Sequence record: LC546831.1
Reading direction: 5' to 3' (one strand)
DNA from: a plasmid
DNA: 64,000 bases
This document shows positions 11,546-29,800 of this stretch, one piece after another. The translations under genes and the position numbers were made by a program. The stretch's first letter is position 1. Each line of letters starts with the position of its first letter. A model generated the notes under the pieces. The model saw nothing but the letters and a program-made list of their open reading frames with translations. It had not been told where the DNA came from and made no database searches.

Positions 11546-11859
11546 CCACTCTCCTCTGAATAAGGCCGTCGCTGCGCTCCGCTCTTTTCTGATTCCGCCT
11601 GGCGGCGGCCACCTCCCGAACACCGTCATATCCCTATAGCGGGCCTGCAGCCCGATGACATCTTGCCATACCCCGGCCTTGGCGGGGCGACGGCATGCCG
11701 TCTTCAAGCGGCTTTCGCGGCATATCCTTGCCGCGCGCGGCGGCGGTATTCCACGTCCGCTTGACCCGCGGCGGTGCCTGGCCGCGCTGACATCGGGCCG
11801 CAGGGAACGGGTGCCGCACCGGCACCCTCCTGCCGTCCCTTGTCAGACGAGGAACGCTT

Positions 11860-12504
11860 ATGTCCCGCTATGTGTTGGGTGACTCCGTACAAGTCATGTC
11901 TTCTTTCCCTGCCGGCAGTATCGACTTTATTCTGACCGATCCTCCATACCTGGTTGGTTTTACCGATCGCTCCGGGCGCTCGATCGCCAACGATACGAAC
12001 CCTGACTGGGTGCTGCCGGCGAGCCGGGAAATGTTTCGGGTGCTCAAACCCAATAGCCTGATGGTGAGCTTCTATGGTTGGAACCGCATCGATGCCTTTG
12101 TCGGCGCCTGGAAGGCCGCTGGCTTCCGTATCGTTGGCCACCTGGTGTTTACCAAGCAATATGCCTCGAAATCCGCGTTTGTCGGCTATCAACACGAGAG
12201 CGCTTATATCCTGGCGAAAGGTAGGCCGGCACTGCCGGCACAACCTCTCGCTGATGTGCAGAGTTGGCAATATACCGGCAACCGCCACCACCCGACCGAG
12301 AAACCCGTTTCCAGCCTGCGACCGCTGATCGAGTCCTTTACCCAGCCTGGCGCCATTGTTCTCGATCCGTTCGCCGGCTCCGGTTCGACCTGCGTCGCCG
12401 CTGCCTTGTCCGGGCGCCGCTATATTGGCATCGAGCTGTTACCTGACTACCACGCTACGGGCTGTCGTCGCCTGGCTGCGCTGCGCGGCCGGCGCGCGGC
12501 ATAA
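11860..12504 (+). CDS. Orphan beta-class DNA N6-adenine/N4-cytosine methyltransferase
   Basis: Motif IV ILTDPPYL near the N-terminus and motif I FAGSGSTCVAA near the C-terminus. No adjacent restriction gene. Confidence 0.75.
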   Translation: MSRYVLGDSVQVMSSFPAGSIDFILTDPPYLVGFTDRSGRSIANDTNPDWVLPASREMFRVLKPNSLMVSFYGWNRIDAFVGAWKAAGFRIVGHLVFTKQYASKSAFVGYQHESAYILAKGRPALPAQPLADVQSWQYTGNRHHPTEKPVSSLRPLIESFTQPGAIVLDPFAGSGSTCVAAALSGRRYIGIELLPDYHATGCRRLAALRGRRAA

Positions 12505-12740: not shown

Positions 12741-13161
12741 TGGAAAGCAATACCGGGCGGGCAAGGGAGCCTGCCCGGATCACCAGGCGGTATCACGGTC
12801 GGCCGCCGCAGCGTATCGAACGCCGCCCGACCGTGATACCGCCACGCGGCAATTGCCGGCGTCGCCGGCGCCGCAAAGGGCGCAGGCTGGGCCTGCCTAC
12901 ACCTCTCTAAATCCACTTCCTCTGCCGCTGCTGCGTAGTGACGGCCTGTGCCGTCCCCAAACGCTAGTCCGGCTCGGTTGTGTTCAAGCGCCGCGGTGCT
13001 CGCCGTCGGCACCCGTTCGCACCCGTTACGGGCATTCAGCCGCGCAACGGGCTTGCGCTGCGGCTTTGACGGCGCCCTTGACCACTGCCCTCAAGGCCGG
13101 CCTTTCGAATGGGTACGGCACCGGCCGGTGTCGCAAACCCTGAAACTGTGGAGGTAGTCCC

Positions 13162-13587
13162 ATGCAACATGCTCATTCCGTCAACCTGCAGGTGTGTGAA
13201 GCCGATCGTCTGTCATTCCTGCCGTACCTGTTCGACGGCGATTTCCTGCGCGCTGAAATGCAAATTTACGCCACCGCCGATCGCTACTTGTCGGGTTACA
13301 ACGGTGGGTTCTGGCATTTCATCCGCCTGCCGAATGGCGGCGGGTATATGGCGCCGGATATTGATCAGGTGACGTTGAGCAATGCCGATAACTGGTTCGA
13401 AAAAACCATCAGCGGCGATGCCGCCGGCATTATCTTGACGTCGCTGGTCATTAACCGCCGCTGCTGGTTCCATCACGACCGCGGCAATGCCGGCATGGTG
13501 CAAATGTATATCCAGCGGGAAGACCAGTTGAAAACCTACATCGATACGCACCCGGAACGGGCTGATATCTGGCGCGCCCTGGACTGA
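13162..13587 (+). CDS. KlcA/ArdB-family antirestriction protein
   Basis: RLSFLPYLFDGDFLRAE...YNGGFWHFIRLPNGGGYMAPD matches my recollection of ArdB/KlcA conserved blocks. About 140 aa. Confidence 0.65.
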   Translation: MQHAHSVNLQVCEADRLSFLPYLFDGDFLRAEMQIYATADRYLSGYNGGFWHFIRLPNGGGYMAPDIDQVTLSNADNWFEKTISGDAAGIILTSLVINRRCWFHHDRGNAGMVQMYIQREDQLKTYIDTHPERADIWRALD

Positions 13588-13618: not shown

Positions 13619-14184
13619 GAACAACAACACAGAAACCCGAGGTTGCCCATGAAACTGGATGAAGAAACCCAAAAACGTCTGCGTCGATACCAGGCGATCA
13701 TCAATGAAGACCGTCTGCAATATGGATTATCCCCGCTGACATTACCGCAAGTGGTCGCCGCCGTTTTTGAATATCTGGCAGATCAGCCGTGCATCTTCTT
13801 GCGCGGGGTGTTTATTCGACAGTAATGCTGGACTTGCCGTGTAGCCTTACATCAGTGGGGCTACCTGACGCCGCGGGAAAAACCCTGTCACCTGCGGTGA
13901 CTGGCAGAAGAGAGCGGCGGCGATGCCGCCGCCTCCAGCTGCCAACAATGACTGCATACCCGTGCTGCAGCAGTGAGGCATCTACCGAGGTAAGAAAGAT
14001 TGATGAAGGGTATCCACTATGAAAAGGAACACGTCTTCCGGTTATAAAAGGAATAACTGCTTGTTTATAAGAACAGTGTTTGGAAAGTAGTGGGTGGCCA
14101 CCCTTCTATTGCCATAACACATCACATTATCGGGATAGTTGGACAAAGGGGGGAGAGGGGAAAAAAACGAGGGCTTGGGGCAAT

Positions 14185-14430
14185 GGCCGGTCGAATGACC
14201 GTCCAGCAGACCTACTCAACCAAGACGCCCGTATGCGGGCGTCAGGTTTCGCCGAACCCGCACGCGGTTTCGGCCTGTCGGTTAGGGTCTCCAAGCCAAC
14301 GGCAACACCCGCGCTTGCTGCCGGCGTCGCCGGCGCCGCTTTCACTGCTCGTCGTTCGGACGACGAGCGCTAAGGTCGCCCCAGCGTTCGCTGCCGCGCC
14401 CGCTGTGTCGGGTTGATCCGTGTTCAACCT
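14185..14430 (+). repeat. Structured leading-region repeat, partial copy 1. Homologous only to the 5-prime half of copies 2-4
   Basis: GTCCAGC..CCTACTC..CGCCGAAC..GGTTTCGG..TAGGGTCT..AAGCCA..CGCTTGC.GCCGGC..GCCGGCGCC.CTTTCACTG.TCG..CGCTAAGG.CGCCCC aligns with copy 2. Confidence 0.5.
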
Positions 14431-14660
14431 TCCAGAGTGCTTTAGCCGCAGTAAGTCTTCCCGCCGCAACTGATAACAGCACAACGCCTCGCTTAAACAC
14501 CAAGGGGTGTATGAACTCCGCCAAAAACTTTTTCCTCCCTTCGGTCAAAAAAACTTTTTGTCTCCGCCCCTTGGTGCCGCTCTTCGCCGTGCTGAATCAG
14601 TTTATTGCGACGGCGAATACTCACAGCGGCATCAGTTATCACCCCACGGAGGATTTCAAC

Positions 14661-14954
14661 ATGGCTCAACAAAACGTCAAAGGCGCGACATCGAAGCCTA
14701 CAGCAGCATCAGCACTTAAAAACGGCGGTCGTTCTGACCTGCAGGTGTATGAGCTGTTTCTCGCTGTGCAGCGCGCCTGCGGTGGCCGTTCAACCGGCAC
14801 GAGTGAGCCGCCGTCCGTACCGGCTGATGCCGAGTATCTGGTCATCGATCAGGGGGAGTTTGACTCTCTGGCCGTTTGGCTGGTCGAGGGGGTTCCGGTC
14901 GCCGCCAGCGATGAAATGAACCTGACGCACTGGGTGATCAGCGCAGGGCAGTAA
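14661..14954 (+). CDS. Hypothetical protein (98 aa), N-terminus MAQQNVKGAT
   Basis: RBS GGAGG before the ATG. First gene after repeat copy 1. Confidence 0.5.
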   Translation: MAQQNVKGATSKPTAASALKNGGRSDLQVYELFLAVQRACGGRSTGTSEPPSVPADAEYLVIDQGEFDSLAVWLVEGVPVAASDEMNLTHWVISAGQ

Positions 14955-15039: not shown

Positions 15040-17118
15040 ATGTCTGACATCGATACTAAAGCACCTGCAAAACCAAAATCAACCGCCAAGAAAAGCCCGG
15101 CCAAGGCTGCATCAGCCAAAACCGCAGCGGCGAAGTTTGTTGAAGCTGCGCTGGACAAGGCTGAGCGTAAAAATCTCATGCTCAAAGAGATCACCTTTAC
15201 TGATCAGAATGCGCGTATTACCCCTCGCACTCAGGACGAGATCGAGGAGATGGCAACCAGTATCGAGGCCACAGGCCTGTTGCAGAACCTCGTCGTACAC
15301 CGCATGGCGGATGGTCGATACGGTGCGGCTGCCGGTGAGACCCGCCGCCTTGGTATGGATTTGTTGATGGTGCAAGGGCGTTCAGCTGCTGGCGTACCGG
15401 TAACGCCGGAGTTTATCGTCCCTGTTTTAGTCGTCGATGAGCAGGACGCCTATGCGATTTCTGTTGCGGAGAACGTGCGCCGCACCAATCTGCAACCTGC
15501 CGATCAGCTCGAAAATATGCGTAAGCTGGCTGAGAACGGAACCCCGGCCGAACAGATCGCTGCCATCCTCGGCTTCAGCACCCTGCATGTTAAAAAATGC
15601 CTTAAGTTGACAACCGTAGCCCCTGCGCTGCTGGAGCTGCTGAAAACGAATCAAATCAATTTTGACCAGCTGGCGGCGCTGGGTGCGACGGATGATCATC
15701 TGCGCCAGATTCAGGCATGGGATAAAGGTAAATATGACGACCACTTCCGCACACCAAAGGCGTTACGAAAAATAGTGCTGGCCGACGAGGTTTCGGCCGC
15801 AGACAGCCAGTTGGTTAACTTTGTTGGGATTGATGCCTATCAAGCAGCAGGCGGTGAGATCCGCGAGGAGATGTTCGTTGACGATGTCATTCTAACCGAC
15901 CCATTGAAGCTGGAAACGCTGGCGATCGCCAAGCTGCAAGCGGTGGCGGATGATGTGGCGAAAAATGAAGGGTGGGCATGGGCTGTTGGCCGTACTCGTG
16001 AGGCGCAACGTTATACCGACGATGAGAAGACATTCGTAGTCCCTTGGGTAACCACGAGGCTGACCAGCGAGCAGCAGGCAGAAATGGATCAGCTGCTCGC
16101 TGAGCAAGAATTGCTGGATGACATGTTTGATACTGCTGAACTCGATGCAGACGATGAATGGGAACATGCGCCACGCGTTGAGCAGATTGAGACGCGTATC
16201 AACGAAATAAACGCAGCTGCAGAACTCAACAACTGGCCGTCAGAAGTTCGTGCGACGGCAGGCATAATCGCTTATCTGAAAGATGGCCAGATCCAAATCC
16301 AACGTGGCTTGATGAAAGTGGAGGACATCAAGCAACAAGAGAAAGCCAACCGCGAAGAAATCAAGAAGAACACCCCACCGTCAGAAAAGGGGCTGTCCCA
16401 AGTCTTGGTGAGCAGTTTATCCGCCGAACGCACTTTAGCCGTGTCAGCGGCGCTGGCGCAGAACACCAACGTCGCGATTGCACTCCATACGTTCACGCTG
16501 GCGCGGCGGGTGTTCGACGCGGGATATTTCTATGTGTTGCACACCTCTGTAGAAAGCATGCGCAGCGGCTGCTTATCCCAGTCAGAAGAGGCTGGTAGCG
16601 CGAGTGGCATCGCCAACCTGAAACTGAACGAGATGCATGAGAGCTGGCTGAACCAATTCCCGGATAATTGGAGCGAAAGTTTTGAGTGGCTGCTGGCGTG
16701 GCCACAGGGTGACGTTCTCGGGTTATTGGCATACTGCGTTTCCCACGGCCTCGATGGCCGAGACAGTTATCTCAAGGATAAGCGGGTTGGCACCAAGCTG
16801 GATTCGGTAGAAAAAGCCCTCGATTTCCAGATCGGGGAATGGTGGAAACCGACTGCCGCGAACTTCTTCTCACGGATCGGCAAAGACCAAATCGTGGACG
16901 CCCTCAATAGCGCCGGTGAAATCGGGAAGGCAAAAGATGCCGAGGGTATGAAACGTAAAGAAGCCGCCGAATTCGCCGCTGCGGTGTTGAGCGAAACAGG
17001 TTGGTTGCCGAGCTGCATGGCACCGCAGCCGCAGGCCGAATCGGAAAGCCGGGCTGATGCCACTGCCAGTGCCACGAACGCCAACGATACTGACGCTGAC
17101 GACAGCGCTGCCGCCTAA
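15040..17118 (+). CDS. Large ParB-like nuclease domain protein of F-plasmid leading regions
   Basis: N-terminal ParB/Srx block LLQNLVVHRMADGRYGAAAGETRRLGMDLL. About 690 aa with an acidic tail. Located upstream of psiB as in F. Confidence 0.75.
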   Translation: MSDIDTKAPAKPKSTAKKSPAKAASAKTAAAKFVEAALDKAERKNLMLKEITFTDQNARITPRTQDEIEEMATSIEATGLLQNLVVHRMADGRYGAAAGETRRLGMDLLMVQGRSAAGVPVTPEFIVPVLVVDEQDAYAISVAENVRRTNLQPADQLENMRKLAENGTPAEQIAAILGFSTLHVKKCLKLTTVAPALLELLKTNQINFDQLAALGATDDHLRQIQAWDKGKYDDHFRTPKALRKIVLADEVSAADSQLVNFVGIDAYQAAGGEIREEMFVDDVILTDPLKLETLAIAKLQAVADDVAKNEGWAWAVGRTREAQRYTDDEKTFVVPWVTTRLTSEQQAEMDQLLAEQELLDDMFDTAELDADDEWEHAPRVEQIETRINEINAAAELNNWPSEVRATAGIIAYLKDGQIQIQRGLMKVEDIKQQEKANREEIKKNTPPSEKGLSQVLVSSLSAERTLAVSAALAQNTNVAIALHTFTLARRVFDAGYFYVLHTSVESMRSGCLSQSEEAGSASGIANLKLNEMHESWLNQFPDNWSESFEWLLAWPQGDVLGLLAYCVSHGLDGRDSYLKDKRVGTKLDSVEKALDFQIGEWWKPTAANFFSRIGKDQIVDALNSAGEIGKAKDAEGMKRKEAAEFAAAVLSETGWLPSCMAPQPQAESESRADATASATNANDTDADDSAAA

Positions 17119-19015: not shown

Positions 19016-19025
19016 TAATAACAAG

Positions 19026-19048
19026 GCGCCTGGCGGCGCCTTTTTCTT
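19026..19048 (+). terminator. Rho-independent terminator
   Basis: GCGCCTGGCGGCGCC followed by TTTTTCTTG. Confidence 0.6.
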
Positions 19049-19237
19049 GTCTGCTTATTGACCTGGCCCCTTTCCGCTCGTTAGGAAGCTTATCCACTCG
19101 GTGCGATGTGCATTCATTAGTGTCGGGAATTCGCTGCGTGTTTAAGCTGCGGGGTAGCATCGGGTCTTTTCCTGGTTGGATTCGGCGTTTTCCTCGTTTT
19201 GAATACTGTGCCAACAGCTGCAAAAAACAATACGCCA

Positions 19238-19681
19238 GCTGGCGCTTCCTTCGGTGGCAGGCCGCAAGCGTCCAGCCATCAAGCCCTACTCGACTAATCG
19301 CCCGCCGGCGGGCGCCAAGTCTCGCCGAACTCCTTCGGGTTTCGGGCCGGCCGGCTAGGGTCTGAAAGCCAGGGTCAACAACCTGCGCTTGCAGCCGGCT
19401 ATGCCGGCGCCACTTTCACTGTTCGCCGCTGTGCCGGCGATCGCTAAGGGCGCCCCGGCGTTTCGCCGGGTCGGGTATGTTCCTGCTCATCTCACCGTTG
19501 GTTATCTCTCATCGGCCTCACGCGGCCGCTTTTGTAGCACCGTCGCCCGGTTGCCCGCAAGGGAGGATAAATCGCCGCAAGCGGCGCCCTTGCTGTCCCC
19601 CGTTCGCCGTCGCTACTTCCGCTTTTTCGCCGCGCAAGGTTCCGACGAGAGATAGATAACCCACCCAGCAAGGAGAACAGC
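19238..19681 (+). repeat. Structured leading-region repeat copy 2 (candidate Frpo/ssi-type ssDNA promoter)
   Basis: About 445 bp, near-identical to copies 3 and 4. Dense inverted repeats, e.g. GGTTATCTCTCATCGG pairing with CCGACGAGAGATAGATAACC. Ends at the ATG of a + strand ORF. Confidence 0.55.
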
Positions 19682-20128
19682 ATGAACACACAGAACGTCA
19701 ACATCAACGTCAACACCGCCACGAAGGAACACTCTGGGAGATATGAAACGGCGGGATTGTGCGAACCAGAGGCCCCGGAGCCTTGGGAAAAGCCCGGCGT
19801 GCAATATCCTGCTGCCGTGCGCGCGTTGGAAATGGAGTTTATTTACTTAGACGACCTGAATGAACTGTATGCGCAAAGCAGCACGTCACCCGACGAGCTG
19901 GAGCAGGCTCTCTATGTGATTTTCGGCCGAATGACAGAGCTTGTCCAAAGCTGCGGGGCTGATTATAAGCAGCCTGACAAGCCGAGGGTTTCATACGAGA
20001 TGGCCAAATACTGGATCAGGGGGCAACGGGTAGCGCAGCAATGTTTCGGGGAAATCGGTCAGCGCGCCTGGGAGCATGCACGTTACAGACTGGCGTTCGA
20101 GTTGGCGGTGGAGTATTCGTACAACTGA
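19682..20128 (+). CDS. Hypothetical protein (148 aa). N-terminus MNTQNVNINVNTATKEHSGRY is encoded within the repeat
   Basis: ORF with RBS AAGGAG. Shares DKPRV.Y...W...C.E.G motif with the 23757 ORF. Confidence 0.5.
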   Translation: MNTQNVNINVNTATKEHSGRYETAGLCEPEAPEPWEKPGVQYPAAVRALEMEFIYLDDLNELYAQSSTSPDELEQALYVIFGRMTELVQSCGADYKQPDKPRVSYEMAKYWIRGQRVAQQCFGEIGQRAWEHARYRLAFELAVEYSYN

Positions 20129-20151
20129 CCAGCTTAAAGATATTTTTATCA

Positions 20152-20176
20152 AAAAGACCTGTTAACAGGTCTTTTG
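20152..20176 (+). terminator. Rho-independent terminator
   Basis: AAAAAGACCTGTTAACAGGTCTTTT perfect hairpin. Confidence 0.6.
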
Positions 20177-20224
20177 GGTGATATAATAAGACCTGTTAAG
20201 TGGTCATATTAAGTCGAGGATACT

Positions 20225-20476
20225 ATGCCAAATATCATTCTGAGTGACACAAGTGCGAGCATCAGCGAGCTGAAGAAAAACCCTATGGAAACCGTTGGCG
20301 CCGGTGCCGGTTTTCCAGTGGCCATCCTGAACCGCAATCAGCCTGCATTCTATTGCGTGCCGGCGGCGCTCTATGAGCAAATGCTCGATGCCCTCGATGA
20401 TCAGGATCTGGTGAGATTGGTCAATGAGCGCCGTAGCGAAGCGCTGGTTGATATCGATCTGGATCAGTTCGCATGA
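20225..20476 (+). CDS. Phd/YefM (StbD-like) antitoxin
   Basis: 83 aa. 4-nt overlap with the downstream RelE-like gene. N-terminal fold typical of Phd/YefM. Confidence 0.7.
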   Translation: MPNIILSDTSASISELKKNPMETVGAGAGFPVAILNRNQPAFYCVPAALYEQMLDALDDQDLVRLVNERRSEALVDIDLDQFA

Positions 20477-20760
20477 CGTATACGGTCAAATTTCGTGAAT
20501 CCGCGCTGAAAGAGTGGGGCAAGCTGGACAAGTCGCTACAGCAGCAGTTCGCTAAAAAGCTGAAAAAATGCTGCGAGAACCCGCATATACCCTCGGCAAA
20601 ACTACGGGGGATGCCGGGGTGTTACAAAATCAAGCTGCGCGCCTCGGGTTTTCGTCTGGTTTATGAGGTGATCGACGATTGCCTGATTATCGCGGTGGTT
20701 GCCGTTGGCAAACGTGAGCGCGGTGATGTGTACCAGTTGGCCAGCGAACGTCTTAAGTGA
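20473..20760 (+). CDS. RelE/ParE-superfamily toxin (StbE/RelE-like)
   Basis: 95 aa. RLVYEVIDDCLIIAVVAVGKRERGDVY C-terminal block typical of RelE/StbE. Confidence 0.7.
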   Translation: MTYTVKFRESALKEWGKLDKSLQQQFAKKLKKCCENPHIPSAKLRGMPGCYKIKLRASGFRLVYEVIDDCLIIAVVAVGKRERGDVYQLASERLK

Positions 20761-20766
20761 ACAGAT

Positions 20767-21090
20767 GTGCCTAAGCACAAGAGCTATTCAAATGAGGTGA
20801 GGTTAATAACAATGCTGGTATTGGGATTAGTTGGTTTCTTGGTGTGGATGCTTTCAATTCTTTATATTGGATTTTCAGCAACCATACTTTGGTCGTGGTT
20901 TATTGTGCCTTTTGGCATAACGCCTATCAATTTGGCGTGGGCTATCGGCCTAGCTTGCCTGTTTGGATTGGGAAGGGGAATTCCCCGTTCGTCAGAAGAT
21001 AATGATAAATTATTTTCAGAATTGCTGATGCCGTATATAAGTACAACATTACTTCTTATTATTGGGTATATTTCGCATATTTTTATGTAA
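20767..21090 (+). CDS. Small membrane protein on a low-GC insert (about 100 aa)
   Basis: Three hydrophobic helices. Very AT-rich. Confidence 0.4.
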   Translation: MPKHKSYSNEVRLITMLVLGLVGFLVWMLSILYIGFSATILWSWFIVPFGITPINLAWAIGLACLFGLGRGIPRSSEDNDKLFSELLMPYISTTLLLIIGYISHIFM

Positions 21091-21095
21091 ACAAT

Positions 21096-21584
21096 ATGAT
21101 AGGTGAAAAAATGAAGACGATCAGACCGGAAATTTTTGAGAAGCTTCGAGACAAGTCAACCGCGGCGAAATACCTGCAGCCCGGCAAATGTGGTTTTCAT
21201 ACTGCGACAGGTTCCCGCCGATTGTTCATCGGGGAGACAACTCGCCAATACTGGACGCGCGAAAAGTATGAAAGCCCCGAGGTCGGGAACACGGAAGCCT
21301 ATGTAAACTACAGACTCGACCAGGCATCAGGTGATCTTGCTCCGGAGGAAAGAGAGGTTCCCGTTTGCCTGAAGGGGGAGGAAGGGGATGAGCATACGCC
21401 GGTGCTTTGCTATATGACGTTGCCGGTGAAAAAGAAGGGGGTTACTACTGAGGAATTCCTGGCGGAAGTCGAAGACAAGCTGACACTGACGCTGGCCGTT
21501 CAGTATGTCTATGATTGCCTGGAGGCTGAACGGCGAGAGCGCGCTACCGGCGGGTCTGATGAGATTATCATCAATGACTTCTGA
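21096..21584 (+). CDS. Hypothetical protein (162 aa, acidic)
   Basis: ORF with RBS. Confidence 0.45.
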   Translation: MIGEKMKTIRPEIFEKLRDKSTAAKYLQPGKCGFHTATGSRRLFIGETTRQYWTREKYESPEVGNTEAYVNYRLDQASGDLAPEEREVPVCLKGEEGDEHTPVLCYMTLPVKKKGVTTEEFLAEVEDKLTLTLAVQYVYDCLEAERRERATGGSDEIIINDF

Positions 21585-21598
21585 TAGGGAGGTATAGA

Positions 21599-21952
21599 GT
21601 GGGGAAAAATGTCTTTACTATTAAACATGAATACTCAAATATCGACTTCTCCGCACTGACTGATTCAGAGTTGACGGAGTTGATAAAACGCGCAATGACT
21701 GAATTTCAAAACAGACTGAATAATCCTGTATTTGAAAATAGAAGAGAAGAAAGGAAGGTTGTATATTCACCTTCGGCGCGACAATTGACATTTATAGAAA
21801 ATTGTCTTTCAGGTGGATATGTTCACGCATCAATGAAAGACGAGTATAAAGCATTAGCTAAAGAGTTTTCGGAATGGTTCACGAGTAAGGGATACCCTAC
21901 AGATTTACGGGGTTCTGATTTTGAGCGCTGGAAACGCTATTACCAAAAGTGA
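21599..21952 (+). CDS. Hypothetical protein (117 aa)
   Basis: ORF with RBS GGGAGG. Confidence 0.45.
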   Translation: MGKNVFTIKHEYSNIDFSALTDSELTELIKRAMTEFQNRLNNPVFENRREERKVVYSPSARQLTFIENCLSGGYVHASMKDEYKALAKEFSEWFTSKGYPTDLRGSDFERWKRYYQK

Positions 21953-22172
21953 GTATGTAATCTTTACACTGCCGAACAGGCAGCTTAGAAACTCTGGGTT
22001 AATAACGAAAATATACTGCCGTACAGGCAGATGCATCAATATTCAGCGAGTATATTAACAACAAAAAAAAGCACCTGATGGGTGTTTTTTTGGTTTTCAT
22101 GTGCACCTGTTAGGTGTATTATTGCATTGTTGTTAAGCAGATGACAATTTTCAATAAAAGAGGGTGAAGAAT

Positions 22173-22412
22173 ATGTCTAAATATCAACTCCGTAAGCTAA
22201 ATGTAAACTCTTTAGCGGTTTCCTACGATACCAAAAAAGAGTTCGATAATTTTTCTACACTGCGTGACGCAATTAATGCTGATAAAAGTCTGTTCTTTGG
22301 GAAAGGCTTCCATGTGTTGGACACAGATAACAATATCATCTTCGATGATAAGGCTGTGGAGCATTTAGGCGCTCAATTTACGCTGAAGCAGGCAATTTTT
22401 AACTATAGCTGA
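22173..22412 (+). CDS. Hypothetical protein (about 80 aa)
   Basis: ORF with RBS AGAGGGTGAAG. Confidence 0.4.
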   Translation: MSKYQLRKLNVNSLAVSYDTKKEFDNFSTLRDAINADKSLFFGKGFHVLDTDNNIIFDDKAVEHLGAQFTLKQAIFNYS

Positions 22413-22421
22413 GGTGAGAGT

Positions 22422-22952
22422 ATGAACGCGGACGAGTTTAAAAGAATTGTCCTGCAGAATGGGCCGGTATTGCAAGCGTGTAAAAAGCCTAAAACCCTTG
22501 TAGAAGCGATGACCTCCAATTTTGCATTGGCGAATAGTGACATTAATTGGAAATTTCATAGCGGATTGGCTTTTGCCTGGCTTATGGGGAGCACGGTTGC
22601 CGCTTCTAGACTGAATCGTCTAAACAAGAATCGTCGATCGACAGTGCCCTTTTGTGAGGCGTGGGGCAGGGTGGCCAAACGGGATAACGGAAAGATCCAT
22701 ATTAATGAACGACGATTCACGCGCTGGTTATCGGTCGCGACGAACGACCTGGAAAAGTTTTATCAGGAAACCCTGAGAGCAATCGATGCGATGGATACCT
22801 ATTCCTCCCCGTTTTCGGTCGCTTCGTTGTATGAGCTCGCTCAGGATCTGGATAACGACTTCTATTACCAAAATAGCGAGCTTGAGCAAAAAGCCGTTGA
22901 ACGCTTTCGGGTGATCGCTGCAGAGCAATTCCTCAATGGCCAGGGTGCCTGA
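22422..22952 (+). CDS. Hypothetical protein (176 aa)
   Basis: ORF with RBS GAGGTGAGAG. Confidence 0.45.
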   Translation: MNADEFKRIVLQNGPVLQACKKPKTLVEAMTSNFALANSDINWKFHSGLAFAWLMGSTVAASRLNRLNKNRRSTVPFCEAWGRVAKRDNGKIHINERRFTRWLSVATNDLEKFYQETLRAIDAMDTYSSPFSVASLYELAQDLDNDFYYQNSELEQKAVERFRVIAAEQFLNGQGA

Positions 22953-23024
22953 ATGAGCTGTATGTTCCCCACGTCAGTGGGGTGAGTGTTACGTTCCCCG
23001 CGACAGTGGGGAGGAAATCGTATT

Positions 23025-23252
23025 ATGCATAATGAAATATTGTCTGAAGCCCAGGCTGCTCTGGGCCTGAACAAGCAGGATATGGCGCGCGCCCTGGGCG
23101 TTCATTACAACACCTACGGAAAGTGGTCGCGCGGTGAGCAAAATCCGCCGGCGGCCGTTTATACCGCAATTAACATGCTTCTTTTTCTTAAAGAAAAACA
23201 GCTTGTTGCGGAGTGGCTTTACAGGAATGAATCTTTCAAACAGATTCGGTGA
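23025..23252 (+). CDS. XRE-family HTH transcriptional regulator (about 75 aa)
   Basis: QDMARALGVHYNTYGKWSRGEQNP helix-turn-helix. Confidence 0.55.
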   Translation: MHNEILSEAQAALGLNKQDMARALGVHYNTYGKWSRGEQNPPAAVYTAINMLLFLKEKQLVAEWLYRNESFKQIR

Positions 23253-23299
23253 TCTGCCGATCGCCGGTGCCTATCAAAATACCTTTCTTAAACTTCCTA

Positions 23300-23756
23300 T
23301 GAGCTTCCTCCGGTGGCCGGCCGCAAGCGTCCAGCCATCGAGCCCTACTCGACTAGCCGCCCGCGCGCGGGCGCCAAGTCTCACCGAACCCGCGTAGCGG
23401 TTTCGGGCCTGCCGGCTAAGGTCTGAAAGCCAACATCAACAACACCAAGGTCAACAGCATGCGCTTGCTGCCGGCGATGCCGGCGCCGCTTTAACTGTTC
23501 GTCGCCTGGCGACGAACGTTGAGGACGCCCCGGCGTTTCGCCGTGTCGGGTGTGTTCCTGCTCATCTCACCGGTGGTTATCTCTCATCGGCCCTTACGCG
23601 GCCGCTTTTGTAGCACCGTCGCCCGCGTGCCCGCAAGGGTGAAATGCACGCCGCAAGCGGCGCCCTTGCGTTCCCCCGTTCGCCGTCGCTACGTCAGCTT
23701 TTCGCCGCGCAAGGTTCCGACGAGAGATAAATCAACCACCGAAGAGGGATACCAGC
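23300..23756 (+). repeat. Structured leading-region repeat copy 3 (candidate ssDNA promoter)
   Basis: Aligns with copies 2 and 4 along its whole length. Confidence 0.55.
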
Positions 23757-24179
23757 ATGAACACACAAAACGTCAACGTCAAAACCGCCACGAAGGAACG
23801 CTCTGAAAGATATGGGTGGACGGAAGCCTATGGTTGGGGCTTGTCGCCTGCTGAACGCATTTCTGAGCAACAGGGCTATCTGAAAGAGCTGCGCCATTTT
23901 AACGATCAGTGGAAACCGGAAAGAGCGCAGCGGCTGATGGAACTGCTGATGACCATCGCCGATAACGTGCTGGACTCGGTGACGAACTGGAAAGACGTGG
24001 GCGCTTTTGGTGATAAACCCCGCGTTCCTTACATGATCGTTCGTTGCTGGCTGGACGCGATGGCGTTGGCGCCAGAGATGTGCGGCGAAATGGGCAGCAA
24101 CGCCGTGGCGTATGTGCTCGAAAAATTGGAGGGGAAATTTGAGTTTGAATGCGCGATGACCCGGATGGATCACCCATAA
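23757..24179 (+). CDS. Hypothetical protein (140 aa), N-terminus MNTQNVNVKTATKERSERY. Paralog of the 19682 ORF
   Basis: Shared N-terminus and DKPRVPY motif. Confidence 0.5.
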   Translation: MNTQNVNVKTATKERSERYGWTEAYGWGLSPAERISEQQGYLKELRHFNDQWKPERAQRLMELLMTIADNVLDSVTNWKDVGAFGDKPRVPYMIVRCWLDAMALAPEMCGEMGSNAVAYVLEKLEGKFEFECAMTRMDHP

Positions 24180-24238
24180 ATTTTACCGGCCGGGCGGCGG
24201 TGCTGCTGCCCGGCCTATCACGAGAAGGAGATAAGACT

Positions 24239-24655
24239 ATGAAACAGAGCATCAACACCGCCGCCAAAGGATCGCCTGATGATTGGGATGTAAAAGCCTG
24301 CCTGTTCGTTACTCAAGAGATCGGCCGCTTTTCTGTCAAATTCTCGGCGCCTTGCATCGGGGGCACTGTGAACCTGAGTTGCAGCCACATCACCAACGCC
24401 TGCAATCCATTTGATGCAGTAATGCGATTTGCGCACGAAACCAGCGCGAAGGGCTGCACGGTGTACGCCGTGGAACAGGTCGAGCCTGTGCGCCCTGTTT
24501 GCCTGAGCACAGCCGGGTATCGCTTTATGCAAAAAGGCTTCATCTGGCTGTGTCTTGATACCGGCGTGATCGTCGAAGTGTCAGAGGATGGCCGGATGCG
24601 GCGCGGGGATGATGGCTGCACGTTGCCGTACTACGGCACGTTAACCCGCATTTAA
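24239..24655 (+). CDS. Cysteine-rich hypothetical protein (138 aa, start taken at MKQSIN)
   Basis: RBS GAGAAGGAG. 10 Cys residues. Confidence 0.45.
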   Translation: MKQSINTAAKGSPDDWDVKACLFVTQEIGRFSVKFSAPCIGGTVNLSCSHITNACNPFDAVMRFAHETSAKGCTVYAVEQVEPVRPVCLSTAGYRFMQKGFIWLCLDTGVIVEVSEDGRMRRGDDGCTLPYYGTLTRI

Positions 24656-24690
24656 CCGATGGAAAACCACCCTAACAGAGGAGAAAAACG

Positions 24691-25038
24691 ATGTATCAGA
24701 CCGAAATCAGCACTGAAAACCGCATGTTGTGGGATGCCAGCACCGAGGCCTCTTATTGGCAGCTAAGGGAGCAAGAAGCACGCACAGAAATCGTGGAGAT
24801 CACCCTGACGGAGTTTATGGACGCGATCGCGGTGTTGTACCCGAAAGACTGGGAGGGAGACGCACATAGCGAAACTTTCAAGCTGGCCGAAATGTACTGC
24901 GGGGACGTTACCTACATTTTCGCCAAAGTCGGCGATCGCTATTTTAAGTTCCGTGACGTGGTGACGTTATCGCATAGCGCCATTTTGGCGCGGATCAATA
25001 AGGAGGTGCTAAACCGGGAAACGAAGACTCAGAAATGA
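24691..25038 (+). CDS. Hypothetical protein (115 aa)
   Basis: RBS AGAGGAG. Confidence 0.45.
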   Translation: MYQTEISTENRMLWDASTEASYWQLREQEARTEIVEITLTEFMDAIAVLYPKDWEGDAHSETFKLAEMYCGDVTYIFAKVGDRYFKFRDVVTLSHSAILARINKEVLNRETKTQK

Positions 25039-25125
25039 AAAAAGCAGCGTTTCCGCTGCTCTCTCATGCCGGTTTACCCCTGAGAAAGCTAGACCGGCGT
25101 TCTATCAAACTACATGGAGTATCGA

Positions 25126-25391
25126 CCATGAAATCGAAAGACCCGAGCATCATGACAGTAACTGACGAGTATGTAAAGCGCCTGCAGGCAGAGTGCGATC
25201 ATGTGAAGCGCCAGCGGCGGATCGCGCGCGGCGATATAGCCGCCGCCGACGTCGATCCGGATCTGCGGTCGTTCGGGCGTCATATCGCCGGGTGTGTCCG
25301 CAAGGGCAAATCAGTCCGGGTGCCGTCGATGCGGGGCAGTGAGTGGGGGCACGTTCTGCGTGCGCTGGAGTTAACGCGGGCAATGGCCTGA
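25126..25391 (+). CDS. Hypothetical small basic protein (start uncertain, 25035 or 25126)
   Basis: ORF followed by the hairpin GCCCCGAAACCGGGGC. Confidence 0.35.
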
Positions 25392-25443
25392 TAACGCGAG
25401 CCGCCCCGAAACCGGGGCGGCTATTCACTGACCCGGAGGTTAA

Positions 25444-26244
25444 TTGATGTCACAACTCTCTTTTGATGCCCTGTTTTCTGTGCCCGTCGATGCGGTGCGC
25501 CCGGCGGAAAAGAACGTCAGGGCTGATGCTTTAGAACAGCCAAAACCCGCCGACCCTGTACCAGGACGGAAACGGACAATCACCGGCGATGATCCGCGGA
25601 AGGCGTTTTTGAGTACGTTTCGTGAAACGGCGCGTAATCACCATCGGTACGAGGTTTTCAGCGATTTCGTGAAGTTGGCGGCCTGTGCTTTGGAGAATGC
25701 CTGTTTAAAGTCGCCGGATATCGAGGCGGAGTATATGGCCACAATACAACGCTATGAGAAGGCAGACGCGCAGCGCATGGCGCAGCTGCTTTCGTGGCTG
25801 GTCATCGGGCTGGAGCAGAATATGGGGGATTTTCTCGGCTCACTGTTTATGGAGCTGGAGCTGGGCAGCGGCCACATCGGCCAGTTTTTCACGCCGTTCC
25901 ATCTTTCTGAGCTGATGGCGGGACTGGTGGCCGGTGATCGGCTGGCGGCGCTGGAAAATGAGCCGTATATCACGCTGTCCGAACCGACCAGCGGCGCGGG
26001 CGGGATGGTGATCGCGTTTGCCAAAGTGATGCTGGCGCGCGGCTATAACCCGCAAACGCAGCTGCGCGCCGACTGCGTGGACATCGATCCGGTGGCGGCG
26101 CGGATGTGTTACATCCAGCTGTCGCTGTTGGGTATCCCGGCGCGCGTGGTGATCGGCAACAGCCTGACACTGAAGTATCAGCGCGAGATGTATACACCGT
26201 TTTGGTATCGCGTGACGTCCACGCGCTGGCCGATGTATCGCTAA
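25444..26244 (+). CDS. HsdM/N6-MTase-like protein. Has motifs FFTP and SGAGG but no recognisable NPPY/DPPY catalytic motif
   Basis: GQFFTPFHLSELMAG and SEPTSGAGGMV. VVIGNSLT sits where NPPF would be expected. Confidence 0.5.
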   Translation: MMSQLSFDALFSVPVDAVRPAEKNVRADALEQPKPADPVPGRKRTITGDDPRKAFLSTFRETARNHHRYEVFSDFVKLAACALENACLKSPDIEAEYMATIQRYEKADAQRMAQLLSWLVIGLEQNMGDFLGSLFMELELGSGHIGQFFTPFHLSELMAGLVAGDRLAALENEPYITLSEPTSGAGGMVIAFAKVMLARGYNPQTQLRADCVDIDPVAARMCYIQLSLLGIPARVVIGNSLTLKYQREMYTPFWYRVTSTRWPMYR

Positions 26245-26580
26245 CAACAGAGGCGGGCAGGGGGATCCTGCCCGATAACGCATGGCAGAAGAAAATGAAA
26301 CGCCGGCGTTACTGGGCGAATTGACCGACCGGGGCGGGAACCGCTAGGCACTGTGCAACTCGACGCCTGAAGGATGCGGTGCACTATTACGCGTGAGCCT
26401 GGCAGCAAAGAGGGTGCCGGTACAAAAGGCAGAATAAGAACAGAGTACGGCGCCTGCGGCGCCGTTCTTATTCCTCATTCCCGTTCTGAGTGTGCCCACT
26501 TGTTATGTCGGCATGTACTTGTTTGTCGTCCTACCACTCTTATTTCCCCGCACCAGGTGTAAAAAACCATTCCACAAGAA

Positions 26581-27028
26581 CTGGCGCTTCCTTCGGTGGC
26601 CGGTCGCAAGCGCCCAGCCATCAAGCCCTACTCGACTAGCCGCCCGCGCGCGGTCGCCAAGTCTCGCCGAACCCCTTCGGGTTTCGGGCCAGCCGGCTAG
26701 GGTCTGAAAGCCAACATCAAGGTCAACCCCCTACGCTTGCAGCCGGCGATGCCGGCGCCGCTTTAACTGTTCGTTGCCTGGCAACGAACGCTAAGGACGC
26801 CCCGGCTTGTCGCCGTGTCGGGTGCGTACCTGCTCATATTGCCGGTGGCTATCTCTCATCGGCCCTTACGCGGCCGCTTTTGTAGCACCGTCGCCCGGTT
26901 GCCCGCAAGGGTGAAATGCACGCCGCAAGCGGCGCCCTTGCTGTCCCCCGTTCGCCGTCGCTACGTCAGCTTTTTGCCGCGCAAGGTTCCGACGAGAGAT
27001 AGATAACCCACCCAGGAAGGAGAACAGC
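26581..27028 (+). repeat. Structured leading-region repeat copy 4 (candidate ssDNA promoter)
   Basis: Near-identical to copies 2 and 3. Confidence 0.55.
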
Positions 27029-27313
27029 ATGAACACACGAAACGTCAAAGTCCAAACCGCCACGAAGGAACACTCTGAAAGATACGGGGAAAAGATCATC
27101 GCTGATTTGGATTCGTTGCTGCAGAAAACAAGCCGGGCGCTGTTTAAGTTTCAGAAAAATGCGAACAGAAGTGCACTCGGCATTCAAACAGCTGCGCTGA
27201 GCCAGGAACTTGAAATATTGGTGAAGGGAGTACCGGCCATCCCGGATATTCAGGAAAGAGTGAATAAGGTGGCCGAACTGCTGCACATTATGGAAGATTT
27301 TTCGGCCCAATAA
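27029..27313 (+). CDS. Hypothetical protein (94 aa), N-terminus MNTRNVKVQTATKEHSERY
   Basis: N-terminus encoded within the repeat. Rest unrelated to the other two. Confidence 0.5.
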   Translation: MNTRNVKVQTATKEHSERYGEKIIADLDSLLQKTSRALFKFQKNANRSALGIQTAALSQELEILVKGVPAIPDIQERVNKVAELLHIMEDFSAQ

Positions 27314-27397: not shown

Positions 27398-28225
27398 ATG
27401 CGTCTGACTTCCCGTTTCGGCCGTTATAACGCCATCCGTAAAGACCGCCCGTTAACCAACGACGAATTAATGAACGTGGTGCCGAGCGTGTTTTCTGAAG
27501 ATAAACACGATTCGCGCAGTGACCGTTATACCTACATCCCCACCATTACGCTGCTGGATAAATTACGTGAGGAAGGTTTTCAGCCGTTTTATGCCTGCCA
27601 GACACGCGTTCGGGATGAAAGCAAACGCGGCCATACCAAACACATGCTGCGGCTGCGCCGGGAAAATATGATTGCCTCCGGCAATAAGGAAGTGCCCGAA
27701 ATCGTATTGTTGAACAGCCACGACGGGAGCAGCAGTTACCAAATGATCCCCGGCATGTTCCGCTATGTCTGCGCCAACGGCATGGTATTTGGTCAATCGT
27801 TCGGTGATGTCAGAGTGCCGCATAAAGGCGACGTAGTCGGGCAGGTGATTGAGGGGGCTTATGAAGTGCTAGGTATATTTGACCGCGTCGATAATGATCT
27901 CGATACCATGAAATGCATTTCACTGACCGAGCGCGACCAGGAATTGTTTGCGCGGGCGGCGTTAAGTTATCGCTACGAGTATGAAGATAAATCCCCAATC
28001 AAGCCGTCCCAGGTTTTGCGTCCGCGTCGGCGTGAAGATTACGGCAATGATTTATGGACGACATTCCAGCGCGTTCAGGAAAACATGATTAAAGGCGGAT
28101 TACCCGGTAAAAGCGCTACCGGGAAAAATACCCGGACTCGGGCGGTCAACGGTATCGATGGCGATATAAAACTGAACCGTGCGTTATGGTTGATTGCGGA
28201 TGAATTCAAAAACCGAATGAAATAA
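27398..28225 (+). CDS. DUF932-family protein (F leading-region orf273-like)
   Basis: MRLTSRFGRYNAIRKDRPLTNDELMNVVPSVFSEDKHDSRSDRYTYIPT...FQPFYACQTRVRD...HTKHMLRLRR matches the DUF932 consensus as I recall it. Confidence 0.7.
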   Translation: MRLTSRFGRYNAIRKDRPLTNDELMNVVPSVFSEDKHDSRSDRYTYIPTITLLDKLREEGFQPFYACQTRVRDESKRGHTKHMLRLRRENMIASGNKEVPEIVLLNSHDGSSSYQMIPGMFRYVCANGMVFGQSFGDVRVPHKGDVVGQVIEGAYEVLGIFDRVDNDLDTMKCISLTERDQELFARAALSYRYEYEDKSPIKPSQVLRPRRREDYGNDLWTTFQRVQENMIKGGLPGKSATGKNTRTRAVNGIDGDIKLNRALWLIADEFKNRMK

Positions 28226-28326: not shown

Positions 28327-28623
28327 ATGCAAACGGAAAATTTACGGGTATGCAGTACGGCGCATTTTACATCGGAAGATAACGAGCTGTTAGCGACAAT
28401 GGCAGGGCAGGCGGCTTTTAGTTCCTGGGTGGTTAACATCCAGTACGGTTATATTCTGGTGCTGACGGATTATCGCTGGCGGCTGCGGGTATTAAAGTCA
28501 CAAGGAGCGTCAAAGGCGCTGAGGTGGTTTTTAATTCATCAGATAAAATATCACCGTATAGGCTACATCCATTTTGATTGTGATGCGCCCATTCTCCCCG
28601 GTCACGAAGTTTTTGAATGGTAG
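28327..28623 (+). CDS. Hypothetical protein (98 aa)
   Basis: ORF with RBS GAGGTGAAAG. Confidence 0.4.
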   Translation: MQTENLRVCSTAHFTSEDNELLATMAGQAAFSSWVVNIQYGYILVLTDYRWRLRVLKSQGASKALRWFLIHQIKYHRIGYIHFDCDAPILPGHEVFEW

Positions 28624-28908
28624 CGCGCTGATAAGAGCCGTCCCCATCGAGGGGGCGTCTCTTATTCTCCCCGCCCGCCCAGCGGGAAATAAATTTCCCG
28701 CTCCCGCTGCCCCAAAGGGGCGCCCAGGTTAGCACCAAAAAACGGTAACGTTTTTTGGTGGTGTCCGTTAACTCTGCGATCCGCTTACCCACATCTACAC
28801 AATCGACGTTATTTCACCTTCACCCGGTGAAATAACCGCTCCCGTTCGTTTCCCATTAAGGTGATGGGAAACTTCACTGGCTTTGTCTTATGTGCATATG
28901 TGGATAAA

Positions 28909-29379
28909 CTACGGGTTCTGGACGAGGAGGGGTTGCTGCTTGCTGGCTTTTATCGCCCGGTAGGTCTTTTCGATTTTGCTTGCATACTTATAACGTCGTT
29001 GCGCCTGCTTAGGCGAATCTTTAAATCCTGCATTATAAGCACCTACTGCCTGCCAGGTCGCTCCCCACTTCTTAAAGGCAATCGCGAGATAATAAGCACC
29101 GGTGTAGATGTTCATGCACGGATCTTGCTTCAGGTGCCGTTCTGAAACCCCTATCGATGAGAGCGAGTTAAAGTGCTGGGAGTCAATTTGCATTAACCCC
29201 ACGCCGTACCCTGTTGTAGGATTTGGACCGATAGCCACGGGATTAAACCGTGACTCGTTCCATGAAATAGCACGTAGCAGATCCGGGTCGATGTGATAAT
29301 CACGACCCGCCATGTCAAAACAATCAGCCATAGCGGCCGTTGAACTGAATAGCATTAACACTGCGATGAGGTTCTTCAT
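28909..29379 (-). CDS. Soluble lytic transglycosylase (F gene X/orf169-like, IagB/PilT family) with a signal peptide
   Basis: ESRFNP...GLMQIDSQH...AYNAG SLT-domain motifs. Adjacent to oriT as in F. Confidence 0.8.
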
Positions 29380-29399: not shown

Positions 29400-29800
29400 C
29401 CCTGGTGAAAATCTAGCCTTTTCGGGATCTCGAGTCAACAAATTCGCGCTCTTTGGGTTAACAGCATCACACCCCACGCAAAAATTCTTTTTGCAGATAA
29501 TTCCATTATAAACAATGTGATAGCGTTATTTTTAAAGATATGGTTTGAGTTAATGAACTTTAAGTGAATCGCTTGTGATTTACTGGTGATTCGTATAAAA
29601 ATCATATTTGGATTCGCATGTGATTCATTCTATAAAATACAGTAAGTTATATGATAAATTGTGAAACAATTGCAGAAAGTGATTCGTCTATGAATTGTGT
29701 AATCACTTGTTAATATGGCTAAAAACTGATATATGAATCGTCAGTGAATCATTATTTGCGATTCGAGAATTCAAAATAACTTATCGTGATGGAGTGAAAA
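29400..29800. other. oriT: oriT region. F-type nic motif on the minus strand at about 29462..29484, with the nick between complements of 29468/29469. Upstream of it an array of GANTC-containing repeats (GTGATTCG / CGAATCAC) that look like TraM/TraY binding sites
   Basis: Minus strand reads TTTTTGCGTGGGGTGT|GATGCTG. F reads TTTGCGTGGGGTGT|GGTGCTTT. AT-rich. Sits between gene X and traM. Confidence 0.65.

Follow-up and report, generated by a model that had tools for sequence, protein, structure and literature searches.

Which function is served by the repeated element that heads several operons in the leading region of a Serratia marcescens plasmid, and why does it continue past the start codon into the coding sequence behind it? 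We addressed this question in the window, that is, the whole stretch of 64,000 nucleotides (nt) of record LC546831.1 analysed here, which covers, in an F-like (MPF_F, MOBF) plasmid whose nearest record is NZ_CP027301.1, the leading region and the first part of the tra region. Four copies of the element, here called c0 to c3, lie in this window, each in front of an open reading frame (ORF), and from their sequence and their modelled folds we consider it likely that they should be placed in the Frpo/ssi ('class 1') family, the single-stranded DNA (ssDNA) promoters of enterobacterial conjugative plasmids. Elements of this kind are already known, and the branch to which the copies belong has already been listed as Frpo*; the start codon embedded in the hairpin, the variant that lacks the usual apex and the DNA-level nature of the conserved N-terminus are new details.

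Four copies face oriT in the leading region

Between the SLT gene and traM the minus strand carries an F-type nic/TraI recognition sequence (coordinates of all features discussed are collected in Table 1), and as a control the same pattern was matched in one of 100 shuffled sequences. As nic lies on the minus strand, this is the transferred (T) strand and therefore the template of the genes behind c0-c3, all four of which read toward oriT from the + strand, the geometry that the preliminary description of this DNA had pointed out. The tra genes together with psiB, psiA and DUF932 are arranged as in F, and ArdB-like, methylase, psiB/psiA and toxin-antitoxin genes surround the copies, the anti-defence setting of a leading region.

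A repeat search, alignment over the whole length and a family profile (E values of about 1e-131) agree on c1, c2 and c3 as repeats fused to the starts of ORFs. Their similarity had been put as 'near-identical', a generous wording for mutual identities of 82-88% with gaps counted, although the similarity itself extends over their entire length. What had been taken for a degenerate half-copy at 14185..14430 is really part of a full-length diverged copy, c0 (profile E value 5e-86), which is about 52% identical to c1-c3 and retains the A/T-rich upper stem of the canonical Frpo type. Identity of c1-c3 with their S. plymuthica counterparts (86-87%) is about the same as that within the plasmid, and in the comparison of S. 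marcescens with S. plymuthica copies orthology is inseparable from concerted evolution.

Conservation extends, as first described, about 57 nt (19 codons) beyond the ATGs at 19682, 23757 and 27029, but the repeats do not end at these codons; rather, the ribosome-binding site (RBS) and the ATG sit inside the basal stem of the hairpin described below. Good Shine-Dalgarno sequences precede all four ORFs. For c0 the start at 14511, given in the ORF listing and likewise in the annotation of a related RefSeq record (15512-15955 there), is 150 nt too far upstream and falls within the element, whereas the ATG at 14661 is the start consistent with the family and has a Shine-Dalgarno sequence. The encoded proteins had been called otherwise different, which holds for the protein after c3 but not for those after c1 and c2, which are distant paralogues in their C-terminal parts; the 148-amino-acid product of the ORF after c1 has no match in Pfam.

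Terminator-like GC hairpins with T-rich tails were observed on the + strand about 190 nt upstream of c1 (19023-19042) and about 110 nt upstream of c3 (26447-26465), and these would insulate each cassette from the operon that precedes it.

The transferred strand folds into a conserved hairpin

Members of the family were drawn from plasmids of Klebsiella, Enterobacter, Citrobacter, Pantoea, Erwinia, Yersinia and other Serratia; 13 divergent members were used for the comparison of folds, and 19 sequences for the analysis of covariation and of promoter boxes. When folded as ssDNA, c1 reaches -131 kcal/mol on the minus strand (z -4.2 relative to composition-matched shuffles) and -113 kcal/mol on the plus strand (z -2.5), and c2 has a T-strand minimum free energy of -147.6 kcal/mol (z -6.8) versus -122.5 kcal/mol on the plus strand. 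The folding check that the preliminary description had proposed for the minus strand thus came out in its favour, and it did so throughout the family: the T strand is the more stable one, by 11-29 kcal/mol, and has the more extreme z-score (-4.6 to -9.6) in 13 of 13 members. In a scan along the 64 kb of the window, c0-c3 and two other leading-region sites upstream of operons stand out as the strongest peaks of GC-corrected, minus-biased structure, and in the same scan strong peaks of this kind are absent from the tra region.

In their consensus fold the 19 sequences share one hairpin of about 215-260 nt, and five shorter hairpins lie 3' of it in the sense of the T strand. The inverted repeats quoted in the preliminary description turn out to be the lower stem and the apex of this single long hairpin, and RBS and ATG lie in helix 1, the covarying basal stem, on the gene-proximal arm. 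The accessory hairpins covary as well (helices 9-15) and are conserved in F Frpo too. On a structure that was itself derived from these 19 sequences, paired cells amount to 81% compared with 71% in shuffles and 36-48% in slid controls, compensatory pairs number 74 compared with 44.7 in shuffles, and none of 500 shuffles attains the observed pairing or compensatory counts. Compensatory changes cannot discriminate between the strands. With DNA parameters, alifold predicted too few pairs for a strand test, and RNA parameters were used; at pairs predicted on both strands (symmetric pair sets) G.T exceeds A.C by 79 to 39, and the alignment energy is -233 for the T strand versus -202 for the other strand.

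These results bear on a different explanation, in which the structure works in + strand RNA as a cis-regulatory leader, as an insulator or terminator, or as a hairpin that sequesters the RBS in read-through transcripts. The neutrality of compensatory changes with respect to strand is compatible with such a role, as is the pairing of RBS and ATG with an upstream segment in the basal stem. Each of c1-c3 also carries on the + strand a hairpin followed by CTTTTGT (e.g. 19513-19528), the complement of the candidate -10 introduced below, which was flagged as terminator-like. Furthermore, in modelled RNAs the stretch from RBS to AUG is less accessible in read-through transcripts (0.33-0.51) than in transcripts initiated within the hairpin (0.50-0.74), the expected direction in four of four copies, but the effect is small, as seen for c2 and c3, and RBS sequestration in read-through RNA is speculation on the basis of these models. 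Set against this, the plus strand folds worse in every one of the 13 members, G.T pairs outnumber A.C pairs, and no Rfam 15 covariance model matches the repeats at gathering score, the sole match in the window being the CRISPR repeat at 21964-21991. Homology and synteny with experimentally defined Frpo elements, to which we turn now, likewise favour a reading at the level of DNA, and we regard function in + strand RNA as very unlikely.

Relation to Frpo, ssi and other known systems

The F elements Frpo1 (ssiD) and Frpo2, both needed in vivo for early expression (Couturier et al. 2023, PMC9849209), resemble the copies in their leading-region location, in the use of the transferred strand as template and in their long imperfect hairpin. 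The family profile has T-strand matches to Frpo1 (E value 2.8e-8) and Frpo2 (E value 3.9e-7), and a canonical Frpo/ssi profile matches c0 at 14441-14691 (E value 2.3e-8). The bulge is kept in c1-c3, its sequence GTGCATTTCACCC being identical in c2, c3 and F Frpo, and further blocks are common to F Frpo and the copies (TGACGTTTTG; CGCCGCAAGGGGC; GACGGT..GCT; GGCGGCGC..CCGGAACGG..GCTGCAAGC). The order of genes agrees as well. Here c3 is followed by orf94, DUF932, DUF5983, SLT and oriT, and in F Frpo1 is followed by ygeA, DUF932 (ygeB), SLT and oriT; c0 is followed by orf97, a ParB-like gene, psiB and psiA, and Frpo2 by ssb, yfjA, a ParB-like gene, psiB and psiA. The same gene positions recur in loci from Klebsiella, Enterobacter, Pantoea and Yersinia, and the start of F YgeA, MSTRNIHVNTAS, resembles MNTRNVKVQTAT of the window proteins. 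The window plasmid differs from F in having four copies instead of two and in the position of the start codon, which in F is separated from the hairpin by a leader of about 65-80 nt and here lies in the basal stem, so that the homologue of the leader is translated. The A/T-rich upper stem of F Frpo, 17 bp long, has no equivalent in c1-c3, and whereas activity has been demonstrated for the F elements, c0-c3 are known from sequence.

With ssi1-3 of ColIb-P9 and class 1 of pESBL the similarity is at the level of profiles only, but there, too, several dispersed copies occur per leading region and each heads an establishment or anti-defence operon. Their core of GGGG, loop, AAAAAGTTTT stem, bulge CATxTC and CCCC TGG is kept in c0 only, which has its A/T-rich upper stem at 14516-14568 within a core of GGGG, AAAAAGTTTTT stem, bulge and CCCC. 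The start sites of the pESBL class 1-3 ssDNA promoters have been mapped by rapid amplification of cDNA ends (Wen et al. 2025, PMC12672017), whereas those of c0-c3 are predicted.

The closest published sequences are found in the work of Samuel et al. (2024; PMC11541004, Supplementary Table 2), who listed five known Frpo/ssi sequences together with candidates of their own. Among the latter, 'Frpo* 5-7' of Salmonella enterica AAEPNF010000010.1, graded low-certainty by these authors, are direct homologues of c0-c3 (blastn identity 70-89% over 38-171 nt, E values 1e-6 to 1e-13) and align with the copies end to end, from the RBS onward, the RBS-proximal stem GGTTAATCCATCTCTCGGTGAG included. Conservation of structure, the link to the early coding sequence and Serratia copies of the c0-c3 type were not part of that candidate list.

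Class 2 promoters (upstream of ardA/klcA; Frpo3/ssp2 in F) and class 3 promoters (upstream of M.EcoGIX; Wen et al. 2025; Fraikin et al. 2026, preprint; bioRxiv 10.1101/2025.04.03.647016) follow the same logic, a GC-rich T-strand hairpin before a leading operon. No sequence match was obtained between c0-c3 and the F class 2 or class 3 regions, and as judged by this comparison the copies are a lineage different from both. A more distant parallel is the minus-strand origin of M13/f1, where a pair of hairpins serves sigma-70 RNA polymerase as a mimic of a -35/-10 promoter and where the product is only a short primer; unlike the copies, this origin has no downstream ORF, and it differs from them in context and shows no homology.

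Distribution among plasmids

The element was matched in 2,424 plasmid records, mostly from Klebsiella, Enterobacter, Serratia and Citrobacter, of which 70% are conjugative. A search of other plasmid leading regions had been proposed with the first description, and the element is indeed present there: the nine loci that were inspected, on F-type and MOBP/I-type plasmids, contain 2-6 copies each, all in the leading region, all directed toward oriT and each at a fixed distance from the RBS and ATG to which it is joined. In species-representative genomes a conserved 26-nt pattern was found in 37 stretches, nearly all of them on plasmid-sized enterobacterial contigs. Exact matches to the 26 nt were also observed on short contigs assigned to Streptomyces luteosporeus (L019, 1.3 kb) and to metagenome-assembled genomes of Thiotrichaceae (L035) and Geobacteraceae (L036), and these three non-enterobacterial matches are most simply explained by contamination or mis-binning.

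The presence of many copies per plasmid in thousands of plasmids is also what would be seen with a selfish dispersed repeat, similar to miniature inverted-repeat transposable elements or repetitive extragenic palindromes, or with a recombination scar that has no function of its own. The preliminary description had named a mobile repeat scattered outside leading regions as a finding that would speak against its proposal, but nearly all genome matches fall on plasmid-sized enterobacterial contigs, and in every inspected locus the element stands in a single orientation directly 5' of a leading-region ORF. The structure covaries, and no associated transposase was seen, with terminal inverted repeats and target duplications not searched for. 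We attach next to no probability to a selfish repeat or scar.

Promoter-like features of the hairpin

RNA polymerase reads the T strand toward its 5' end, and the gene-proximal arm of the hairpin would therefore be the template and the distal arm the non-template strand. The distal arm, read from apex to base, was scanned without bias for sigma-70-like sites. The predicted site is TTGCGG-18 nt-TGcTACAAA in c1-c3 and TTGGTG-19 nt-TGcTGTTAT in c0, and across the family it conforms to a positionally conserved pattern, TTGnnn-N16-19-TGnTACnnn. It is the top match at the same alignment columns in 13 of the 19 members and is within the top three for most of the others. TTG at the columns of the candidate -35 is conserved in most of the 19, GCT of the candidate -10 is invariant across the family, and TTG and TGCTAC are among its most conserved blocks. 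As a promoter, the hairpin outscores the duplex in 18 of 19 members because of mismatches between the arms (in c2, TGcTACAAA versus cgcTACGTC), and no conventional duplex promoter match was found inside any copy. The -35 and -10 boxes that the preliminary description had hoped to find in a folded minus strand can accordingly be placed as candidates, conserved in position and oriented to the ORF, although the -35 agrees with the sigma-70 consensus at only 3 of 6 positions and the weak -10 at only 4 of 6.

In the predicted fold TAC of the candidate -10 is paired, AAAAG lies opposite a 3-nt loop, and after two base pairs there follows a 7-nt bulge of the template strand, GAAAAAG; with this loop and bulge the region from about -9 to the start would be pre-melted. 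The geometry of -10 and template bulge puts the predicted start of transcription about 52-62 nt upstream of each ATG, and an mRNA beginning there would have a 5' region with less structure than shuffled sequences (z +1.3 to +2.0). Placements of the -10 in the conserved GTGCATTTCA bulge and of the -35 at the TTGCGG of the upper stem were also tried and dropped, as c1-c3 have no upper stem and no properly spaced partner hexamer was available.

Weighing membership in the Frpo/ssi family

Several points weigh against assigning c0-c3 to active Frpo/ssi promoters. The canonical Frpo/ssi profile misses c1-c3 even at E values up to 10, and blastn of c0-c3 against F finds nothing; c1-c3 are seen only through the family profile, and their homology to Frpo is therefore transitive, through c0-like intermediates. 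These three copies are also without the A/T-rich upper stem (AAAAAGTTTT.. / ..AAAAAGTTTTG) that Samuel et al. regard as an UP element. The candidate -10, TACAAA, has not the final T that is usually critical, and the candidate -35 matches in TTG only. The exact boxes and start site come from our own scan, unanchored to the published boxes of F Frpo, and both the promoter activity of c0-c3 and its single-strand specificity are predictions. Finally, the asymmetry of G.T over A.C is only about 2:1, on sequences that are not independent, and the covariation was counted on a structure obtained from the same alignment.

Taken at their strongest these points would mean that c1-c3 are decayed or silent derivatives of Frpo, whose operons use duplex promoters or read-through and whose repeats persist by recombination between copies. 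The lost upper stem, the failure of the canonical profile and the weak -10 all fit such a view, and gene conversion could explain why identities within the plasmid are of the same order as those with S. plymuthica. The upper stem, however, is also missing from copies in Yersinia, Erwinia, Pantoea, Citrobacter and S. plymuthica and from Frpo' 5/6 of an insect metagenome, where a GC mini-hairpin stands instead; with a loss so widespread the A/T stem is probably inessential to the family and its absence a common variant, not a local accident. Across these plasmids the form without the apex is conserved, its stems show compensatory changes, its T-strand bias equals that of the canonical forms, and TTG and TGcTAC are retained. 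Moreover, neither the copies nor the DNA just upstream of them contain a duplex promoter match, and the terminator-like hairpins before c1 and c3 oppose read-through. Decay therefore appears to us unlikely, and membership in the Frpo/ssi family the better account of c1-c3 as of c0.

A model for expression from the incoming strand

We propose a model for the action of c0-c3 as ssDNA promoters in the recipient. The minus strand, nicked at about 29469, would enter the recipient 5' end first, and c3, c2, c1 and c0 would arrive in this order, at about 2.4, 5.7, 9.8 and 14.8 kb from the nick. Before synthesis of the complementary strand each element would fold into its hairpin of about 215 nt (longer in c0) and several GC-rich accessory hairpins 3' of it. 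As the non-template strand, the distal arm would present TTGCGG, an 18-nt imperfect spacer and TGcTACAAA, and through an internal loop and a bulge the start region and the downstream half of the -10 would be melted in advance. Host sigma-70 RNA polymerase would bind this mimic of a duplex, start about 55-60 nt before the ATG and transcribe the template arm into the ORF and the operon behind it. The resulting mRNA would be without the distal arm and unusually unstructured at the RBS and early codons, and would be translated at once. When the complementary strand has been made the hairpin would be lost, and as the duplex reading is the poorer promoter expression would stop. Transcripts may also prime synthesis of the complementary strand, by analogy with F Frpo.

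This last step could be taken as the chief function, the elements then acting in replication of the incoming strand, as priming sites (ssi) or as roadblocks that delay synthesis of the complementary strand. Frpo transcripts prime DNA synthesis in vitro according to the summary of Masai and Arai (1997) in PMC7690428, and in vivo priming by ssp1/Frpo transcripts and stalling of conversion by the F ssp2 hairpin have been described (bioRxiv 10.64898/2026.01.09.698686), all of which counts for a replicative role. The copies themselves have about 240 nt each of conserved, covarying GC-rich hairpins on the side where DNA synthesis would arrive. Such a role, however, supplements promoter function and is no substitute for it, and neither the fusion to RBS and ATG at a fixed distance nor the unstructured leader is needed for priming or stalling alone. 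We hold it quite unlikely that replication is the main function, and retain the model of an ssDNA promoter.

Table 1. Positions in the window of the copies of the element, their predicted parts and the associated genes
Feature	Positions	Strand	Remarks
Copy c0	14150-14720	minus	family profile 14170-14679; location corresponds to F Frpo2
Copy c1	19233-19745	minus	direct repeat 19239-19745; family profile 19233-19700; takes in about 57 nt of early coding sequence
Copy c2	23295-23814	minus	direct repeat 23298-23814; family profile 23295-23775
Copy c3	26575-27086	minus	direct repeat 26581-27086; family profile 26575-27047; location corresponds to F Frpo1
Main promoter hairpin of c0 (candidate)	14412-14670	minus	apex 14516-14568 with AAAAAGTTTTT...AAAAAGTTTTTG
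Main promoter hairpin of c1 (candidate)	19475-19691	minus	DNA fold; helices 1-5 with compensatory changes
Main promoter hairpin of c2 (candidate)	23550-23766	minus	DNA fold, covariation
Main promoter hairpin of c3 (candidate)	26822-27038	minus	DNA fold; basal stem weaker in c3
Apex mini-hairpin GCGCCGCTTGCGGCG	c1 19573-19587; c2 23649-23663; c3 26921-26935	minus	replaces A/T-rich upper stem
Accessory GC-rich hairpins	c1 19233-19474; c2 23295-23549; c3 26575-26821; c0 14170-14411	minus	3' side of promoter hairpin
Candidate -35	c1 19555-19560, c2 23631-23636, c3 26903-26908 (TTGCGG); c0 14498-14503 (TTGGTG)	minus	inferred
Candidate extended -10	c1 19531-19539, c2 23607-23615, c3 26879-26887 (TGcTACAAA); c0 14473-14481 (TGcTGTTAT)	minus	inferred
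Predicted transcription start window	c1 19620-19630; c2 near 23697; c3 near 26969	+	-10 / template-bulge geometry
Near-invariant block AACGTCAACGTCAAAACCGCC (21-mer)	c2 23769-23789 (codons 5-11); c1 19694-19720; c3 27041-27061	+	conserved across genera
ORF after c0, 97 amino acids (orf97)	14661-14954	+	corrected start ATG 14661; begins MAQQNVKGATSKP
ORF after c1, 148 amino acids	19682-20128	+	first 19 codons inside repeat
ORF after c2, 140 amino acids	23757-24179	+	distant paralogue of 148-amino-acid ORF
ORF after c3, 94 amino acids (orf94)	27029-27313	+	location of F ygeA (95 amino acids)
DUF932 gene	27398-28225		comes after 94-amino-acid ORF
F-type nic/TraI recognition sequence TGCGTGGGGTGT/GATGCTGT	29461-29480	minus	2 mismatches to F

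The conserved early coding segment

The second part of our question concerns the segment of the repeat that lies behind the start codon. In six genera the ORFs after family members begin MNTQNVNVKTA(T/A).E..ER(Y/W), and the near-invariant block within this segment is also found at 19958-19977 and 14568-14587 of a further sequence, L002. Four features indicate that the shared N-terminus is conserved at the level of DNA and not of protein: variation is even over the three codon positions (0.48, 0.38 and 0.55 bits), a 21-mer is near-invariant, the reading frame shifts across the segment in Yersinia copies, and in F the homologous stretch is not translated and belongs to the leader that runs from the hairpin to ygeA or ssb. 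A shared protein motif was rejected as the main cause of conservation on the grounds of the even variation, the frame shift and the lack of translation in F.

A closing helix between the early coding segment and the far end of the repeat was also considered and rejected, since RNAalifold yields just four invariant pairs, and in a search for a pairing partner of the segment among 19 folds no column pair had a mean probability of at least 0.3. An open translation-initiation region is the simplest idea for what the segment provides. A wider proposal, which we find possible but doubtful, is that the Frpo unit is a portable cassette for zygotic expression, with RBS and start in the basal stem, a nucleic-acid element of about 19 codons grafted onto unrelated genes, and an A/T stem that is dispensable. 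The early element of such a cassette may make the start accessible when the mRNA begins in the hairpin and inaccessible on read-through transcripts, or it may be a binding or hand-off site.

Other elements of the leading region

Two structured regions of the minus strand resemble the other classes of ssDNA promoter. The region at 12745-13165, GC-rich and minus-biased in its structure (-130 vs -118 kcal/mol), lies upstream of an ArdB/KlcA-like gene (13162-13587), contains a match to sequences of these classes at 12840-13066 and is 73% identical over 229 nt to Frpo* 1 of Samuel et al. (E value 7.6e-27), itself a relative of sequences that match the class 2 / Frpo3 / ssp2 region of F; it is probably a class-2-type ssDNA promoter. 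The region at 11560-11865 lies upstream of a DNA methyltransferase gene (11860-12504), likewise contains such a match, at 11702-11863, and shares 68.5% identity over 178 nt with the sequence 5' of the F methylase (E value 1e-11); it is probably of the class 3 type. A further structure peak of the minus strand (28600-28910; -74.6 vs -65.9 kcal/mol), between the DUF5983 and SLT genes and about 0.6 kb from nic, holds several near-perfect hairpins, e.g. CACCAAAAAACG-TTAC-CGTTTTTTGGTG, and is unrelated to the repeat.

Within the operon behind c1, a toxin-antitoxin pair of the Phd/YefM-RelE/ParE kind (20225-20760, +) lies directly 3' of the first ORF, and as it is part of this operon zygotic expression along with the c1 ORF would be expected. 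The same c1-driven operon contains, within 21964-22095 (+), a solitary type I-F CRISPR repeat, TTACACTGCCGAACAGGCAGCTTAGAAA, which matches Rfam CRISPR-DR4 at 21964-21991 with 37 bits. After a further 22 nt comes a truncated repeat core, TACTGCCGTACAGGCAG (22014-22030), and then an intrinsic-terminator-like hairpin with a run of seven T at about 22065-22091. The repeat is conserved in nine Serratia plasmids, with no cas genes nearby. The unit looks like a candidate RNA anti-CRISPR or mini-array, and it would be transcribed early after transfer.

Implications

The findings on c0-c3 do not overturn the current understanding of ssDNA promoters. These promoters set which plasmid genes act in the first minutes after transfer, namely anti-restriction, SOS inhibition, toxin-antitoxin and, here, possibly an RNA anti-CRISPR, and through this choice of early genes they influence the establishment of a plasmid in its new host. 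In the window plasmid the four class-1-type hairpins, together with the class-2-like and the class-3-like hairpin, would split a leading region of about 18 kb into separately driven operons. The copies with a truncated apex offer a natural way to ask whether the A/T-rich stem is required. Furthermore, the conserved, covarying and strand-biased fold, along with the homology of its profile to Frpo, raises confidence that the element is put to the same use in about 2,400 plasmids.

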